A stretch of DNA of 44,340 nt from a phage: the NCBI GenBank assembly GCA_030393635.1, contig GCA_030393635.1_4352.1, one strand, 5' to 3'. The notes under the pieces are model-generated. The model was not told the DNA's origin, did not search any database, and saw only the letters and a program-made list of their open reading frames with translations. This document shows, piece after piece, positions 752 to 12,133 of the stretch. Both the position numbers and the translations under genes were made by a program. Each line of letters starts with the position of its first letter. Positions within the stretch are counted from its first letter, which is position 1.

Positions 752-2992
752 ATGTCCGATGTGATTTTATCCTACTCGTGGTCCCGTCGCAACGCGCGGG
801 CAGAGAAAAAGGATATAAACGTCAGAACCACACACACAGCAACACTTGACGACCTGAAAGAGTTAATTCAGCCGCTAGATGCTGTTCGTGACGGGATTAA
901 CCCTAAGACTGCCCCCGGCTATATCACAGCCGCGTGCGACTCTATGCACAGCACCGTAAAAGACCCGGAAACCGGCGACTTTAAGCAAGCGCGCAAAGGC
1001 TTCTTCTATCGCTGCGACGCGTCTGTAAGCAAATCGTCGCTGGCGTATCTGGACTTCGACAGTGCGACGCCGGAAGAGTATCAGGAAGCTGTGCGTCTGG
1101 TTAAGCGCAGCCGTAAAGCCATGTGCCTCTACACTACGGCATCGCATACCGACGAATCGCCGCGCTTTCGCGTCGTCATGCCGCTGGTGCGCCCGGTTGA
1201 AGGCGGTGACATCATCCGTGTTCGCCATGGATTACTTGAGCACTTCTTCAAAGGCATGGGCGCTGACCGCAGCGGGTTCACTCTTTCGCAACCGATGTAC
1301 CTGCCGCCGGTCGGCTCTACCGTTATCTGGTCGCGCCGCAACGACCTGATTGACCCGGACGAGTTACTGGAAGGCATCCCGACCGTTGACGTTAGCAGCG
1401 CATCGGATTACCAGATACCGGAAGAACTACGCACCGCGTTTACTGACGCGTTCGAAGCACTGGCGTTCGAGTACGGCGGCATCATGACACCGCGTGGCCT
1501 AAAAATGCCAGCCACACCAGAGCATGCAGAAAACTACAGCGACCCGACGCCGCGTCCGGACGACTTCCTGCTGTGTTTCCCGCGTGAAGGATATGAAGCG
1601 CCGAACGTAACCATGATCCACGACACCGACATTACGGCGACCGAAGGCATGTCGCCGAAAGAGGTGTGGAAATACGCGTGCGATGCGACCGGGCTGCCGT
1701 TCAGTGAAGTCGCTGAGGCAATCGGCTGGGGTGCGCGAGAGTCCGTTTCATGCAGCCTTGACGACCTGGAAGACGACGAGGACCCAGAGGAGGACGAGTT
1801 ACCTGAACCGGTAAAGGCTGATTTTGTCGTCGAGGGGTACATGCCGTCGGATTGTATCTGGGACATCGTGGGGGAATCTGGCACGTACAAATCGTTCTAT
1901 ACGCTGGGGATGATGTACCTGAGCGCCGCCGGATACCGGTTTGCGGGTGCGGATACGCAACGTTGCCACCATTTCTATATTGATGGGGAGGGTGGTGCAG
2001 CTACACGCACCCGTATTGATGCGCTCGCAGCTAAGTATGGCGAGGAAGGTAAAGATTATGTACATGTCATCGATATGGGTGAAGTCGGAAAACTGAAAAG
2101 CCTGATTAAGTTGATGCGTGAAACTGCAGGCGACGAACCAATCGGCATGGTCGCATTCGACACCCTCAACCAGACGCTGGCCCTGACGATTGATAAGTTC
2201 GACGAGAACAGTTCATCGACGGCAATCGGCATGGGTAAAGTTATTGCCATCCTGAAAGAAGTACGTGATGCGACTAAAGCCGCGGTAGGCGTTGTCCACC
2301 ATACGCCGAAGGGCGGAAAGAAAGCCCGTGGTAGCGGGGCGCTGTATGCGGGTGTTGACGTGGAACTGACAATTGAACGTGCAACCGACCGTCAAATAAA
2401 CGTATACCACTCAAAATTTAAGCACGGGCCCCAACAGAAGACCGTTGGCATGGTGCTTGAGTCGGTACAGTTCCGTGAAGCGCCGCCGCCGAAAGAGTAC
2501 CGCGCGGTTGAGTTCCTCGGTAGCACAGAGGAATACGGCCCAATCGTAAACCTCGACCTGCCTGAGCCGCACAAGGCGCTTGTGCTGATGCCGTGGGGCT
2601 TCGAGCCGTTCAAAACTGACGAGGAGAAAGAGCGGGAAGAAGGGCTGACAAAGGAAGGTAAAGAAAACGTAAAGAATGCTGTAAAACGCGGGAAGGATGA
2701 AGGGCGTAAGGAATCAATACTCGCCGCACTGGAAGACCTGCAACAGTCCGATGACACCGGACGAGGTTTTACGCAACGGCAGATAGTGGCGAACTCAGGC
2801 GACCACGCCATCACAAACTACCATCTTGAGAAGATGCTGAAAGACGGTGAGTTGATGCTCGGGTGCGATGTTAACGGTGAAGTTATACCAGGCACATACC
2901 GGATACCGGAAAAGATGGGTGACAGATTAAGGCCAAAGACAATATACGAGCCGAATGAAATGCTGACAGTGACAGAGGAGGATTTGGAATAG
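752..2992 (+). CDS. DNA primase/helicase (N-terminal primase-like region plus RecA-fold ATPase)
   Basis: ORF 710..2992 (GTG at 710; ATG at 752 has GAAGGA 9 nt upstream). Walker A GESGTYKS, Walker B-like VAFDTL, VVHHTPKGG motif; acidic linker DDLEDDEDPEEDE; C-terminal TEEDLE. Confidence 0.75.
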   Translation: MSDVILSYSWSRRNARAEKKDINVRTTHTATLDDLKELIQPLDAVRDGINPKTAPGYITAACDSMHSTVKDPETGDFKQARKGFFYRCDASVSKSSLAYLDFDSATPEEYQEAVRLVKRSRKAMCLYTTASHTDESPRFRVVMPLVRPVEGGDIIRVRHGLLEHFFKGMGADRSGFTLSQPMYLPPVGSTVIWSRRNDLIDPDELLEGIPTVDVSSASDYQIPEELRTAFTDAFEALAFEYGGIMTPRGLKMPATPEHAENYSDPTPRPDDFLLCFPREGYEAPNVTMIHDTDITATEGMSPKEVWKYACDATGLPFSEVAEAIGWGARESVSCSLDDLEDDEDPEEDELPEPVKADFVVEGYMPSDCIWDIVGESGTYKSFYTLGMMYLSAAGYRFAGADTQRCHHFYIDGEGGAATRTRIDALAAKYGEEGKDYVHVIDMGEVGKLKSLIKLMRETAGDEPIGMVAFDTLNQTLALTIDKFDENSSSTAIGMGKVIAILKEVRDATKAAVGVVHHTPKGGKKARGSGALYAGVDVELTIERATDRQINVYHSKFKHGPQQKTVGMVLESVQFREAPPPKEYRAVEFLGSTEEYGPIVNLDLPEPHKALVLMPWGFEPFKTDEEKEREEGLTKEGKENVKNAVKRGKDEGRKESILAALEDLQQSDDTGRGFTQRQIVANSGDHAITNYHLEKMLKDGELMLGCDVNGEVIPGTYRIPEKMGDRLRPKTIYEPNEMLTVTEEDLE

Positions 2993-2999
2993 GGAAAAA

Positions 3000-3022
3000 G
3001 AAAGGGGCGTTAAGCCCCTTCA
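3000..3022. terminator. Hairpin between convergent genes
   Basis: GGGGC-gttaa-GCCCC stem-loop with A-run upstream and TT downstream. Confidence 0.5.
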
Positions 3023-3225
3023 CCAAACGCCAGCCACTTGGCGTCTACTTGCAGCACTTCTGCCAGTCTAAACAGCGTCGCAGGGCGGACGTCCTGAGTT
3101 ACTCCGAGCGCAAGCTGGTTAATTGCGCCCTGGGAAACGCCGGCCAGAACAGCCAGACGGCGCTGGGAGATTCCGAGTTCTTTACGGCGTTGTTCTACAC
3201 GGATGCCTAGTTCAGATGGTTGCAT
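3010..3225 (-). CDS. XRE-family (Cro/CI-type) HTH transcriptional regulator
   Basis: 71-aa ORF; ISQRRLAVLAGVSQGAINQL is a typical XRE HTH; AAGGAG RBS 7 nt upstream of the ATG on the minus strand. Confidence 0.8.
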   Translation of the reverse strand: MQPSELGIRVEQRRKELGISQRRLAVLAGVSQGAINQLALGVTQDVRPATLFRLAEVLQVDAKWLAFGEGA

Positions 3226-3256
3226 GTCAATTACTCCTTAGTTAGTTTATATGTGA

Positions 3257-3318
3257 ATAGTACCATATTAATTATTTTAGAAAAGCCCATTGACATCATG
3301 AATAGTTCGCTATTATAG
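3257..3318. promoter_or_regulatory. Divergent promoter/operator region between the XRE regulator and the small ORF at 3352
   Basis: Minus strand: TACTAT -10 overlapping palindrome AATAG-TACC-ATATT (3256-3269). Plus strand: TTGACA (3290-3295), palindrome AATAG-TTCG-CTATT (3301-3314), -10-like TATAGT. Confidence 0.55.
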
Positions 3319-3351
3319 TGAGCCTATACTAAACGAGAGGAGAGAAGCAAA

Positions 3352-3501
3352 ATGACCAATAACCGCAAAGCAAAGATTCTGTTAGGCCTTGATGTCGCAT
3401 TTGGAACTAAAGAAACCGCGCGCTATCGCGTAAGCAACAATCGTGTTGGCTTCTTCGACAAAGTGACAGGCCAGTTAGTTAAAACCGTTAAATATAAATA
3501 A
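3352..3501 (+). CDS. Small hypothetical protein (49 aa)
   Basis: ATG at 3352 preceded by strong SD GAGAGGAGAG; not in the ORF track because it is under 60 aa. Confidence 0.5.
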   Translation: MTNNRKAKILLGLDVAFGTKETARYRVSNNRVGFFDKVTGQLVKTVKYK

Positions 3502-3516
3502 ACAGGAGAACAAATA

Positions 3517-4008
3517 ATGTTAGAGAAATTCTTAGTATTAATTGAGCGTGGTGTAGTTGCACTTGAACTGATTGCCGCGAACAGTGTGAAACAACCGGTG
3601 TATGAACTTAAGGCAGAGGCAAAAGTAGCCGATAAGGTTCGTGATGTTGTTGTAAAAGAAGCAACAAAAGAAGTCCCGGTCGAAGGTGAAGACATCGTTG
3701 ACACTAAACCGGCAGAAGAAGAAGAGAAGCCAAAACGCAAGCCGCGTAAAGCTAAAGTAGAGGAGCCAACGCCAGAGCCGGAGGAAGAGAAAGAAGAGGT
3801 CGATTACCAGTCTCTTCGTGACCAGATTCAGGCTATCGACGATGCGATTAACGAAGGTCCGAGCGATGCCGCGTGCGATGATTCCGATGAACTGCTGGAA
3901 GAGTTCACCGGTAAGAAAATGAAGATTGCCGCGATTAAAGACGAAGACCTGGCTGAATATCTGGAACGCCTGACTGCAATCAAGAACAAGTATTTCGAAG
4001 AAGAATGA
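3517..4008 (+). CDS. Acidic K/E-rich hypothetical protein
   Basis: 163-aa ORF with RBS AACAGGAGAA; long acidic/lysine-rich low-complexity segment. Confidence 0.6.
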   Translation: MLEKFLVLIERGVVALELIAANSVKQPVYELKAEAKVADKVRDVVVKEATKEVPVEGEDIVDTKPAEEEEKPKRKPRKAKVEEPTPEPEEEKEEVDYQSLRDQIQAIDDAINEGPSDAACDDSDELLEEFTGKKMKIAAIKDEDLAEYLERLTAIKNKYFEEE

Positions 4009-4023
4009 TTTATCAGCGGCCTT

Positions 4024-4046
4024 CGGGCCGCTTTAACTGAGGGTAA
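4024..4046 (+). terminator. Intrinsic terminator
   Basis: GCGGCC-ttcg-GGCCGC stem followed by TTT. Confidence 0.55.
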
Positions 4047-9041: not shown

Positions 9042-9194
9042 ATGACAATGTTTGTATTCTGGACAATCGTAACCCTGCTCGCACTGTTACTCGGTGCGGG
9101 AGTAGCCGCGGTGTTCTGTTACGACCTGTTCTTTAAGTTTGTCGGTGTTGCCGTTCTAAGCGGAGCTTTCCTTACTTGGGTTCTACGCTCATGA
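9042..9194 (+). CDS. Small membrane protein (50 aa)
   Basis: Hydrophobic MTMFVFWTIVTLLALLLGAGVAAV; stop overlaps the next start as ATGA. Confidence 0.4.
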   Translation: MTMFVFWTIVTLLALLLGAGVAAVFCYDLFFKFVGVAVLSGAFLTWVLRS

Positions 9195-9475
9195 CTAAAG
9201 AGGGCCGCATACAGAAATACGCAAAAGACCGATTCGAGGCCATCGGCGGCCTCGTTCGTAAGTTATCGTACGAGGGGCGCTCCGGCGCTCCCGACCTGCT
9301 GGTAATTCTCCCCGGCAGCATAGTCTGGTTCGTCGAGGTTAAGAAAGACGAAAACACGAAGCCAGACCCGCACCAGCTACGGGAACATGAGCGGATGCGC
9401 AAACGTGGCGCGAATGTTTTTGTCGTCGGTTCGTTTAAACAGGTTGACGACCTAATAGCGAACTATTATAGTTAG
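9191..9475 (+). CDS. VRR-NUC domain nuclease (PD-(D/E)XK)
   Basis: ORF 9176..9475 with ATG at 9191; GAPDLLVI...VEVKK matches the VRR-NUC catalytic core. Confidence 0.65.
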   Translation: MTKEGRIQKYAKDRFEAIGGLVRKLSYEGRSGAPDLLVILPGSIVWFVEVKKDENTKPDPHQLREHERMRKRGANVFVVGSFKQVDDLIANYYS

Positions 9476-9505: not shown

Positions 9506-9697
9506 ATGAAACACGAATATGACCGAAAACCAGCACGTGACATCGTACCGGGCGACATGATTTTCAACGTTAAGACACGCCAGCCTGTTGCCGTTGATAC
9601 GGTGTTCGTCGAGTCGAACGGTAAACTGGTTATCGAAGATGTAACGGGTAACGTTACCGCGTTTGGACGTAAAGAGTTAGTTCTGGTGGCTAAATGA
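9506..9697 (+). CDS. Hypothetical protein
   Basis: 63-aa ORF with AAGGAATTGAG RBS. Confidence 0.5.
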   Translation: MKHEYDRKPARDIVPGDMIFNVKTRQPVAVDTVFVESNGKLVIEDVTGNVTAFGRKELVLVAK

Positions 9698-10716
9698 ACT
9701 ATTACAACGAATGGGATAAAGGCGCAGCCGCGTGGCTGCGTGAGTTGATAAAACAGGGTCACATACCTTTTGGAGTTGTAGATGAAAGAAGCATTACCGA
9801 AGTTAAGCCAGAAGACCTTGACGGGTTCACCCAGTGTCATTTTTTCGCTGGTATCGGCGGCTGGCCTCTCGCGCTCAGACTTGCGGGAGTTTCGGAAGAT
9901 ACGCCTCTCTGGACGGGAAGCCCGCCTTGCCAACCGTTTAGCGCGGCAGGAAAGCAACTCGGACAGTTCGACCCAAGACACCTCGCGCCTGTATTCCTCG
10001 ACCTCATCAGCGAGTGCCGCCCTCCAGTCCTCTTTGGGGAACAGGTTGCGCCAGCAATTGCAAAATCGTGGATGTGCGATTTACAAACTCACCTGGAAGG
10101 AGAAGACTACGCCGTCGGGTTTGCCGTACTCCCAGCTTGTAGCGTCGGCGCACCGCACAAGCGCGACAGATTGTTCTTTGGAGCGCATAGACTGGCCCAC
10201 ACCCGCAGTATCACCGATAACAAACGATGTGAATATGCGCAGTACAGACGGCAGAACGAAACCGAACAAACTGGGTTGGGCCGCTGCGATGGCGGCATGG
10301 CCCACTCCGACGACACGCGACCACAAGGACGGGAAAGAGTGCCTGAACGTGCCAACGAACAGTCTGCTGGGGCGGGAAGTGTGGAAAGCAAGTTGGCCGA
10401 CGCCACGAAGCGCCGACGGGGAGAAGAATGTCCGGACACTGAACGGCGCGTTGTCCGAGATTCAGAGGAAGGGTGGGCCCCAGGACGTGGCACAAGCGGC
10501 GGCTATAACACAACCAATACGCATAACGGCTTCTGGTCAGATGCTGACTGGCTCGGATGCCGGGATGGAAAATTCAGGCCAGTTGAATCCGGAACATTCC
10601 CGCTGGCTAATGGGATACCCGCCAGAGTGGGACGATTGCGCGGTTACGGCAATGCCATCGTCCCGCAAGTAGCCGCTGAATTTATAAAGGCATTCATGGG
10701 GGCGGTAAATGAGTAA
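9694..10716 (+). CDS. DNA cytosine-5 methyltransferase-like gene with apparent frame disruption (see finding)
   Basis: Frame 1 carries FFAGIGG, PCQPFSAAGK, FGEQV, GAPHKRDRLFFG and the C-terminal GNAIVPQVA; the overlapping frame 2 (9782..10672) carries three WPTP motifs and RWLMGYPPEW. Confidence 0.6.
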   Translation: MNYYNEWDKGAAAWLRELIKQGHIPFGVVDERSITEVKPEDLDGFTQCHFFAGIGGWPLALRLAGVSEDTPLWTGSPPCQPFSAAGKQLGQFDPRHLAPVFLDLISECRPPVLFGEQVAPAIAKSWMCDLQTHLEGEDYAVGFAVLPACSVGAPHKRDRLFFGAHRLAHTRSITDNKRCEYAQYRRQNETEQTGLGRCDGGMAHSDDTRPQGRERVPERANEQSAGAGSVESKLADATKRRRGEECPDTERRVVRDSEEGWAPGRGTSGGYNTTNTHNGFWSDADWLGCRDGKFRPVESGTFPLANGIPARVGRLRGYGNAIVPQVAAEFIKAFMGAVNE

Positions 10717-12133
10717 GTTCCAAAGGCGCGAGTACCAAAAGCTCATGACTTCGTTCATGTTGCAACACCCGCGCTGTAATATCTGGGCTAGCATGGGTGC
10801 AGGGAAGACGGGCAGCGTATTGTGGGCATTAAACCGCCTGTTCCGCAACGGCCAACTTAATGACGACGACCGTGTGTTAATCCTTGCCCCGTTACGAGTT
10901 GCATCCTGTACGTGGCCTGCAGAGCAAGAGAAATGGCGGTTCCCGTGTCTGAGTGTCGTCGATGCAACTGGTTCAGAGAAGCGCCGTATCGCGGCGCTGG
11001 AGTCAGACGCTAACGTGGTCTGTACAAACTACGAAGTTATCGAGTGGCTGATTGACTACTACGGCAAAGACGACTGGCCTTTTACGGTTATCGTTGCCGA
11101 TGAAAGCACGAAGCTGAAGTCATTCCGTAGTCGTTCTGGCGGGAGTAAGCGAGCGAAGGCGCTAAGTAAGGTGGCGTTCGGAAAGGTTAAGCGTTTCATC
11201 AACCTGACAGGTACACCATCACCAAACGGCCTCAAAGACTTGTGGGGCCAGAACTGGTTTATCGACGCTGGCGAGCGCCTGGGTTCTTCATACACCGCGT
11301 TCACCGACCGATGGTTTAACTCTGTGCAGAAAGGCAAATCAGCGATGGCGCGTGAGTATCATGCGCGACCGGGTGCGGATAATGAGATTCACCAGAAGAT
11401 GAAGGACATTAGTCTCACGATTGACGCCGCCGAGTGGTTCGGGTGTGAAGCGCCGATTATCGTACCGGTTGAAATAGACCTGCCTAAGAAAGCGCGCCAG
11501 GCGTACATAGATATGGAGGAGAAGCTATTCGCAGAACTGGAGAGCGGGGAAGTTGAAGCGGCTAACGCCGCGGCGAAGACGTCAAAGTGTCTGCAGATTG
11601 CATCCGGTGCTGTATATGTATCGGGGCCAGACGGAGAAGCAACGAAAGACTGGGAGAAAGTGCATGACACGAAACTTGATGCGCTGGAGTCAATTGTGGA
11701 GGAGTTACAGGGCGCGCCGTTGCTTGTGGCCTATCAGTTCAAGCACGAACTGGAGCGCATCCTTAAGCGATTCCCGCAGGCGCAGGCGTTCGCCAAAGGT
11801 GCTAAGGGCAATAAGCAGATGGAAGCGTGGAACCGCGGTGAAATCGAAATCTTATGCGTCCACCCAGCGTCAGCCGGGCATGGTTTGAATTTACAGGACG
11901 GCGGCCATCATCTGGCGTTCATCTCGCAAGGGTGGAACCTTGAGCACTATTTGCAGGTTGTCGAGCGTATAGGCCCTGTCCGCCAGAAACAGGCGGGCCA
12001 CGAGCGCCCGGTGTTCCTCTACCACATCGTTGCTAAAGACACGCTGGACGAGGTTGTTGCCGCCCGTACCGACGAGAAGAAATCGGTACAGGAAGAATTG
12101 CTTAATTACATGAAGAGACGAGGTAAGAAATGA
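10709..12133 (+). CDS. SNF2/DEAD-like ATP-dependent helicase
   Basis: 474-aa ORF; motif I GAGKTG, motif II ADESTKLK, helicase C-terminal region. Confidence 0.75.
   Translation: MSKFQRREYQKLMTSFMLQHPRCNIWASMGAGKTGSVLWALNRLFRNGQLNDDDRVLILAPLRVASCTWPAEQEKWRFPCLSVVDATGSEKRRIAALESDANVVCTNYEVIEWLIDYYGKDDWPFTVIVADESTKLKSFRSRSGGSKRAKALSKVAFGKVKRFINLTGTPSPNGLKDLWGQNWFIDAGERLGSSYTAFTDRWFNSVQKGKSAMAREYHARPGADNEIHQKMKDISLTIDAAEWFGCEAPIIVPVEIDLPKKARQAYIDMEEKLFAELESGEVEAANAAAKTSKCLQIASGAVYVSGPDGEATKDWEKVHDTKLDALESIVEELQGAPLLVAYQFKHELERILKRFPQAQAFAKGAKGNKQMEAWNRGEIEILCVHPASAGHGLNLQDGGHHLAFISQGWNLEHYLQVVERIGPVRQKQAGHERPVFLYHIVAKDTLDEVVAARTDEKKSVQEELLNYMKRRGKK

Follow-up and report, generated by a model that had tools for sequence, protein, structure and literature searches.

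The window analysed here is a 44,340-nucleotide (nt) stretch of DNA from a Guernseyvirinae-type siphophage, with Salmonella phage MET_P1_001_43 as its top nucleotide match (91.6%). It contains a locus at which the conserved motifs of a C5-cytosine methyltransferase are divided between two long open reading frames (ORFs) of the same strand, here called alpha and beta. Beta is read in the +1 frame relative to alpha (frame 0), and the overlap comprises the full 891-nt beta ORF. The original prediction, made from the letters alone, had numbered these frames 1 and 2; both ORFs lie exactly where it had placed them, and its division of the motifs between two overlapping frames is borne out by motif mapping and by the match to PF00145. 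PHROGs holds a separate 'DNA methyltransferase' family for each ORF, alpha belonging to phrog_363 (end to end) and beta to phrog_1008 (E 1e-64), and the protein P0005 is 100% identical to alpha.

Estimates of the ratio of non-synonymous to synonymous polymorphism (pN/pS) draw on 16 close relatives as well as on pairwise comparisons, such as that of the window with locus L002. Segments that are unconstrained in sequence and stop-free are referred to as passengers. Alpha comprises the following features:

9694..10716, + strand: alpha ORF, frame 0, 340 amino acids (aa); candidate large C5-methyltransferase subunit with motifs I-VIII, a linker, a C-terminal element and motif X
9841-9861, + strand: alpha motif I, FFAGIGG, for S-adenosylmethionine (AdoMet) binding; aligned to M.HhaI
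9922-9954, + strand: alpha motif IV, PPCQPFSAAGK, PCQ with the catalytic Cys; aligned to M.HhaI
10033-10047, + strand: alpha motif VI, FGEQV; aligned to FMENV of M.HhaI
10147-10182, + strand: alpha motif VIII, GAPHKRDRLFFG; its PHKRDR aligned to PQKRER of M.HhaI
10186..10527, + strand: alpha linker, R/G/E-rich, about 113 aa; a passenger segment, sequence-unconstrained and stop-free
10528..10587, + strand: conserved C-terminal element of alpha, GFWSDADWLGCRDGKFRPVE; pN/pS 0.23 in frame 0 versus 1.05 in the +1 frame
10597-10632, + strand: alpha segment FPLANGIPARVG, motif-IX-like, dual-coded with beta motif IX and conserved across lineages
10633..10683, + strand: alpha motif X region, RLRGYGNAIVPQVAAEF, containing GNAIVPQ; pN/pS 0.08 in frame 0 versus 2.2 in the +1 frame

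Motifs I, IV, VI and VIII of alpha align with residues 2-33 and 77-169 of M.HhaI, and PF00145 matches alpha at residues 74-192 only (62.6 bits, cut-off 22). Pfam reaches neither motif IX nor motif X, be it in alpha or in a composite sequence spliced from both frames, and alignments to the PDB likewise stop short of motif X; the residues of the motif X region, GNAIVPQ included, are invariant in 66 alpha sequences. Residues ~165-277 of alpha are of low complexity with a frame-0 pN/pS of 1.2-1.7, indicating that the target-recognition domain (TRD) and motif IX are not in the alpha polypeptide. Among relatives, the linker can be as short as about 35 aa or exceed 230 aa, and the whole of alpha ranges from 264 to more than 480 aa. 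The CRDGK(F/Y)RP of the C-terminal element persists across lineages despite codon changes that alter beta.

The features of beta, including its predicted disorder as scored by the predicted local distance difference test (pLDDT), are:

9772..9775, + strand: Shine-Dalgarno-like GGAG, lying within alpha codons and 6 nt 5' of the beta ATG (9782)
9782..10672, + strand: beta ORF, +1 frame, 296 aa, wholly nested in alpha; candidate small subunit that bears WPTP modules and motif IX
9782..10006, + strand: beta leader, residues 1-75; a passenger, S/L/R-rich, predicted disordered (pLDDT ~50), +1-frame pN/pS above 1.3, stop-free
10007-10066 and 10079-10147, + strand: beta helix and a beta-hairpin with an LTWKEK motif, respectively; dual-coding over alpha motifs VI-VIII
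10193..10579, + strand: beta variable region with three WPTP modules (10193, 10298 and 10394) and IRITASGQMLTGS; presumed target recognition
10580..10630, + strand: putative beta motif IX, QLNPEHSRWLMGYPPEW, dual-coded with FPLANGIPARVG of alpha; +1-frame pN/pS 0.24

Selection acts on the two frames in different parts of the locus:

9694-10020: pN/pS 0.11-0.19 in frame 0, above 1.3 in the +1 frame; alpha selected
10021-10100: 0.42 in frame 0, with synonymous diversity down to 0.07, and 0.23 in the +1 frame; both constrained
10186-10525, window versus L002: 1.68 in frame 0 (4 synonymous, 21 non-synonymous changes), 0.08 in the +1 frame (21 synonymous, 5 non-synonymous); beta selected
10526-10580: 0.23 in frame 0, 1.05 in the +1 frame; alpha selected
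10581-10640: 0.86 in frame 0, 0.24 in the +1 frame; beta selected, with the alpha sequence also conserved across lineages
10641-10716: 0.08-0.21 in frame 0, above 1 in the +1 frame; alpha selected

Constraint therefore passes from frame 0 (9694-~10190) to the +1 frame (~10021-10640) and back to frame 0 (10526-10716), in blocks that overlap and leave two doubly constrained stretches, 10021-10100 and about 10581-10640. This broad order is shared by an explanation in which programmed double ribosomal frameshifting, +1 near 10186 and -1 near 10640, yields a single canonical polypeptide, and the composite so obtained also sets motif IX collinear with M.HhaI. The original prediction had likewise recovered a full-length enzyme only by reading frames 1, 2 and 1 in turn. 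This reading matches the amino-acid constraint, but it treats as separate what is in fact overlapping: because constrained blocks of both frames coincide at 10021-10100 and 10581-10640, no single switch point keeps both, and a shifting ribosome would skip alpha 10528-10587, which is a real element constrained in frame 0.

The RNA offers little more to frameshifting. The segment 10186-10285 does fold more stably than shuffled sequences (-27 kcal/mol, z -2.35), the pairing being between GGCCCAC...GGGCCGC parts of two WPTP-coding repeats, but the module carrying this fold is deleted in many close relatives. At junction 1, no conserved slippery or hungry-codon site was found in 75 loci, where the codons vary between CTC TTC TTT GGC, CTG TAC TGG GTG and CTC TTC TTC GTG; near junction 2, just 2 of the 75 have a canonical -1 heptamer. 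The RNA following junction 2 is unstructured (z +1.13), Rfam gives no match, and folding around the beta start is unremarkable (z +0.54).

The passenger segments decide between one shifted translation and two full ones. Under frame switching, or with translation limited to the constrained parts, neither the alpha linker nor the beta leader would have to be open and each could gain stop codons, yet both are stop-free. Stop-codon expectations were obtained by synonymous codon resampling with the overlapping protein held fixed. Over the catalytic domain of alpha, the beta leader has 0 stops in 44 of 44 loci, where 130 are expected, while the +2 frame of the same region, serving as control, matches the null with 203 stops versus 188 expected. 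With the beta protein kept, 196 frame-0 stops are expected in the alpha linker, and there are none in 50 of 50 loci. With passengers that stay open at 0 versus 130 and 196 stops, no conserved slippery site and no Rfam element, translational recoding, one of the options of the original prediction, is given up, and programmed double frameshifting is held to be highly improbable.

Further support for the translation of both passengers comes from a long relative, L085 (1990-4209), in which alpha spans 740 and beta 701 codons, both open. Within its beta leader, an endonuclease VII-like domain (phrog_3322, E 9e-26; phrog_1035, E 4e-18) is encoded in the beta frame at a position between motifs VI and VII of alpha, and its alpha linker contains an HNH domain in the alpha frame (phrog_2255, E 4e-8). 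The presence of folded domains inside both passenger segments argues that both segments are translated.

Beta is also preceded by start signals of its own. In the group of the window, this signal is TTTGGAGttgtagATG, with GGAG at 9772-9775 and ATG at 9782, while distant lineages use AGGAGcattgcagATG (AGGAG-N8-ATG), formed from alpha codons R-S-I-A-D-V with a rare AGG Arg codon; a Shine-Dalgarno sequence plus ATG is thus conserved, at two alternative positions. A Shine-Dalgarno core of at least 4 nt stands ahead of the first beta ATG in 36 of 60 distinct loci, compared with 13.8% of control ATGs. These signals point to translation of beta from its own start. A variant in which alpha and beta are accompanied by a third product, a low-level +1 frameshift fusion of the alpha N-terminus to the beta C-terminus acting as a single-chain form, is recommended by natural indel variants that encode such fusions; it is nevertheless very unlikely, as the shift site is not conserved and the fusion would be devoid of motif X and of the beta helix-hairpin.

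That two long open frames are improbable in themselves, as the original prediction had held, is confirmed by synonymous resampling: when the alpha protein is kept, the probability of a +1 frame that is open for at least 296 codons is 0.0006. The +1 frame of other genes in the window is interrupted by 11-42 stops. The alpha/beta arrangement occurs in 443 phage records at 80-93% nucleotide identity, among them phage K1G, in which both ORFs are annotated and beta appears as a second 'DNA methyltransferase' coding sequence (CDS).

More distant relatives were drawn from two samples. The alpha-selected sample comprises 80 IMG/VR loci picked by similarity to the alpha N-terminus (99% to 54% identity), of which ~60 are distinct and full-length. 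Almost without exception, their +1 frame remains open over 200-500 codons and is nearly co-extensive with alpha, while the +2 frame is open for ~50-140; WPTP and WLMG are confined to the +1 frame, and GNA(I/V) stands at the frame-0 C-terminus in all but a few loci, most of these exceptions being cut or short. The beta-selected sample adds 138 further distinct loci, picked by similarity to seemingly stand-alone beta proteins. Alpha motifs IV and X are both found, in the -1 frame, in 128 of the 138, the remaining 10 show a single motif or are truncated, and alpha is absent in none; median open lengths are 363 codons for alpha, 306 for beta and 12 for the third frame. A stand-alone beta family (P0142, P0252, P0151) was considered and rejected, as an overlapping alpha is always present in the DNA of these proteins. 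A HMMER scan with beta residues 92-296 returned 9,943 representatives at 50% identity with E<=1e-3, and 5,285 with E<=1e-10. Most of the matches carry the TWK motif at residue ~90-130, as expected of nested ORFs that were called separately.

A few records resemble artefact or decay, which the original prediction had listed as two compensating indels, assembly error or recent pseudogenisation. Two single contigs (P0001/L109 and P0009/L108) have a 1-nt indel that joins the alpha N-terminus to the beta C-terminus, and the NCBI annotation pipeline PGAP splits an E. coli prophage homologue into two pseudogene pieces. However, conservation of the double frame in more than 200 distinct metagenomic loci excludes assembly error and recent pseudogenisation, the same architecture being found in the 443 phage records and at alpha identities down to 54%. 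In addition, complementary segments of both frames are under purifying selection, both frames are kept open against strong expectation, and the fused variants (P0001, P0002, P0009 and P0014) are singletons with differing junctions. The probability of such an origin is close to negligible.

In the DNA of L109 and L108, the frame shifts fit a single 1-nt indel that leaves motif X in the third frame, and the two fusions are either rare knock-out mutants or sequencing errors. P0014 is a fusion-like protein of 334 aa from a 46.5-kb contig that is labelled Hevea brasiliensis (rubber tree) in NCBI; the plant assembly is almost certainly contaminated with phage DNA. The homologue split by PGAP is L083 (E. 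coli NZ_CP041110, locus 2863-4032), annotated as two 'incomplete' DNA cytosine methyltransferase fragments. Alpha motif I of the window contains a T6 run (9840-9845, in CATTTTTTCGC), which is T8 or T7 in the IMG/VR loci L025 and L081. With the longer run, the alpha N-terminus and the catalytic motifs fall into different frames, and the beta start (MKEALPKL...) is joined to these motifs instead; this could be a homopolymer sequencing error or on/off variation.

The constrained part of beta appears to contain what alpha lacks. Its motif-IX-like core, LNPEHSRWLMGYPPEW, is highly conserved: in 123 sequences, L268, W275 and W283 are invariant, and P270, H272, S273, R274, L276, M277, G278 and P280 nearly so. 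The segment NSGQLNPEHSRWLMGYPPEW of beta is collinear with the motif IX region of M.HhaI, KTRKLHPRECARVMGYPDSY (residues 270-289), and it is this short collinear match, together with conservation in the family, that suggests the assignment of motif IX to beta. The beta tail, CAVTAMPSSRK, is a frame-shifted image of alpha motif X. In locus L008, a non-homologous replacement module is aligned to window positions 10536-10635; it encodes KLESFHPIMARQIMGFPPEW in beta, which is a more canonical motif IX, and FWSEWKTDKGADGKTRIIPPDYGSSDNGVPARVG in alpha, and the characteristic patterns of both frames survive the swap.

Upstream of the putative motif IX, the variable region of beta is mosaic and rich in indels among close relatives, with 0-4 WPTP modules (K1G has one), and both frames are open in every variant. 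As the variable region is constrained in the beta frame (pN/pS 0.08 versus 1.68), target recognition would be placed on the small subunit. The first WPTP of beta shares bases with the alpha residues directly after motif VIII (window 10189-10204, and junction 1 in the 75 loci): the VADA/VADS of alpha is encoded by GTG GCC GAC GCC, which becomes TGG CCG ACG CC., or WPTP, when reading begins one base further on. More generally, the LADA/MADA/LGDA repeats of frame 0 correspond to WPTP in the shifted frame.

Alpha could instead be a self-sufficient, non-canonical methyltransferase, with beta as an unrelated overprinted protein, involved for example in DNA binding or anti-restriction. Alpha has its own motif-IX-like FPLANGIPARVG ahead of motif X, beta has no detectable similarity to solved structures or Pfam families, and fusions of beta with other methyltransferase or nuclease domains occur in some cases. 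On the other hand, the region of alpha between motifs VIII and X is unconstrained and of low complexity, and it shrinks to ~35 residues (264 aa in total), so that a short, unconstrained middle leaves no plausible TRD in alpha. The LNPxxSxWLMGYPxxW of beta fits motif IX of M.HhaI far better than the alpha segment does, beta is never seen without alpha in the 138 beta-selected loci, and experiments on M.EcoHK31I show that such a beta chain is required. An enzyme read in frame 1, as the original prediction had also proposed, is thus correct to the extent that frame 0 appears to be translated end to end, but with a middle at pN/pS 1.2-1.7 it would hardly be self-sufficient, and full independence of alpha is considered unlikely.

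The in-frame fusions of beta involve Dam (PF05869, E 4e-53) and N6_N4 methyltransferase domains (PF01555). In P0125, P0260, P0129, P0191 and P0225, the beta frame runs on into Dam, N6_N4 methyltransferase or DUF2800/PD-(D/E)XK, and in some of the extended proteins, motif IX is separated from the CAVTAMPS tail by an inserted HNH domain. Such proteins may be bifunctional methylases or result from read-through into the next gene.

The explanation favoured here, with a probability of roughly 0.8, is that one C5-cytosine methyltransferase is encoded as two polypeptides by nested genes of the same strand. This option was absent from the original prediction; it fits all data and has a precedent in M.EcoHK31I. 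Alpha would provide the AdoMet-binding and catalytic motifs I-VIII, followed by the unconstrained linker, the conserved element and motif X. Beta would initiate at its own Shine-Dalgarno-ATG ~30 codons into alpha and, after a disordered leader, would contribute the helix-hairpin, the variable region of WPTP modules, which probably serves target recognition, and motif IX. By analogy with M.EcoHK31I, the alpha and beta chains would pair as a heterodimer that rebuilds the canonical enzyme, presumably an orphan methylase shielding phage DNA from host restriction, in which gain and loss of WPTP modules in beta presumably shift specificity. In E. coli genomes, only prophage orphan copies were found, and no restriction enzyme was in the neighbourhood at the 2 loci inspected.

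Several observations weigh against a two-polypeptide enzyme. The match between beta motif IX and M.HhaI is short and not significant alone, and a profile of 123 beta sequences found no match among PDB sequences. Beta matches no Pfam family, and NCBIfam has no model for it. AlphaFold on alpha, with a shallow alignment, reached a mean pLDDT of 36 and gave no usable model. Applied to beta with 123 homologues, AlphaFold predicted residues 1-70 as disordered and the helix 76-94 and hairpin 101-123 with confidence (pLDDT ~89). The 220-260 region was confident as well, yet no compact fold resulted (predicted template modelling score 0.33), leaving a model that is only partly confident and for which Foldseek found no meaningful match in the PDB. 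The absence of a compact fold in the model of beta alone is consistent with a subunit that needs its partner. Moreover, the beta ATG lies ~75 codons upstream of the constrained part of beta, a distance for which the two-polypeptide reading does not account.

Beyond the window, it is about an even bet that the nested alpha/beta arrangement is the ancient and obligate architecture of a very large phage family (~10^4 clusters at 50% identity), in which beta bears modular (W/L)PTP target-recognition units and the variable region of alpha is a stop-free tether forced by the overlap. If true, this would be among the longest and most widespread same-strand dual-coding regions in prokaryotic viruses, and the textbook TRD assignment of M.EcoHK31I-type enzymes would need revision. 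A deeply conserved same-strand overlap of ~900 nt with alternating driver and passenger roles would also be a clean system for studying the evolution of overlapping genes and the synthesis of two products per mRNA. Beta modules are swapped among close relatives, which may let phages change their methylation specificity and thereby evade host restriction.

Current annotations of these loci are inconsistent, ranging from a single methylase with an odd middle, through two 'DNA methyltransferase' CDS (K1G RefSeq) and a 'Mte8-like protein' (beta in older records), to pseudogene fragments. Recognising the alpha/beta design corrects the annotation in hundreds of phage and prophage genomes and ends false 'frameshift' or 'pseudogene' calls.

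The genes around the locus are tightly packed. The stop of the upstream neighbour (9506..9697) overlaps the alpha start in an ATGA at 9694-9697, and the downstream gene (10709..12133), encoding an SNF2-type helicase, has its ATG at 10709 within the final alpha codons. The consecutive start/stop overlaps of 9506..9697, 9694..10716 and 10709..12133 suggest translational coupling. A VRR-NUC/Holliday-junction-resolvase-like ORF (9176..9475) lies upstream of the methyltransferase locus.

Among known systems, double use of one DNA segment for parts of a single functional unit is familiar from frameshift genes, such as that of the phage tail assembly chaperone G/GT and prfB, in which two overlapping frames likewise carry the parts. 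These genes have a conserved slippery site and a zero frame that ends soon after it, whereas the window locus lacks a conserved site of this kind and its two frames each run open for ~300 codons. In comparison with the monomeric M.HhaI, the order of motifs I-VIII, variable region, IX and X is regained when alpha and beta are read together, but the variable region and motif IX of the window lie on a separate polypeptide and in a separate frame. Literature searches covering frameshifted or overlapping phage cytosine methyltransferases, Mte8 and the Jerseyvirinae methylase yielded no description of the nested arrangement in phages.

M.EcoHK31I has an alpha of ~309 aa and a beta of ~176 aa, sizes that would fit the family of the window proteins if its beta starts near the helix. 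This enzyme of E. coli HK31, which recognises YGGCCR, is a C5-methyltransferase of two chains that must associate for activity; its beta is nested in another frame of alpha, alpha containing motifs I-VIII along with X, while beta has motif IX (PMC2836561, PMC3404938). Its beta tolerates loss of the first ~42 residues in vitro and can be initiated at internal Met codons, while the predicted TRD has been assigned to alpha in the literature (PMC2836561, PMC3404938). The window locus resembles it in its two polypeptides, the nested beta and the split of motifs, as judged from the published architecture, and the partly dispensable N-terminus of its beta parallels the unconstrained beta leader of the window. 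In contrast to M.EcoHK31I, which is part of a restriction-modification system, the window enzyme would be an orphan methylase of phages or prophages, with VRR-NUC and SNF2 helicase genes as neighbours, and its selected variable region is in beta and not, as predicted for the TRD of M.EcoHK31I, in alpha.

Another heterodimeric C5-methyltransferase, M.AquI, is split linearly into a large subunit with motifs I-VIII and a small subunit with motifs IX-X (PMC3404938). It shares with the window the distribution of conserved motifs over two chains, but in the window motif X is back in the large subunit and one gene is fully nested, so that a fit to the M.AquI type, which has a short ORF overlap, fails. 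The window locus is probably a further case of a known but little-recognised design that was published once, for M.EcoHK31I, and the new angle that it adds is the constrained, variable TRD-like region in beta.

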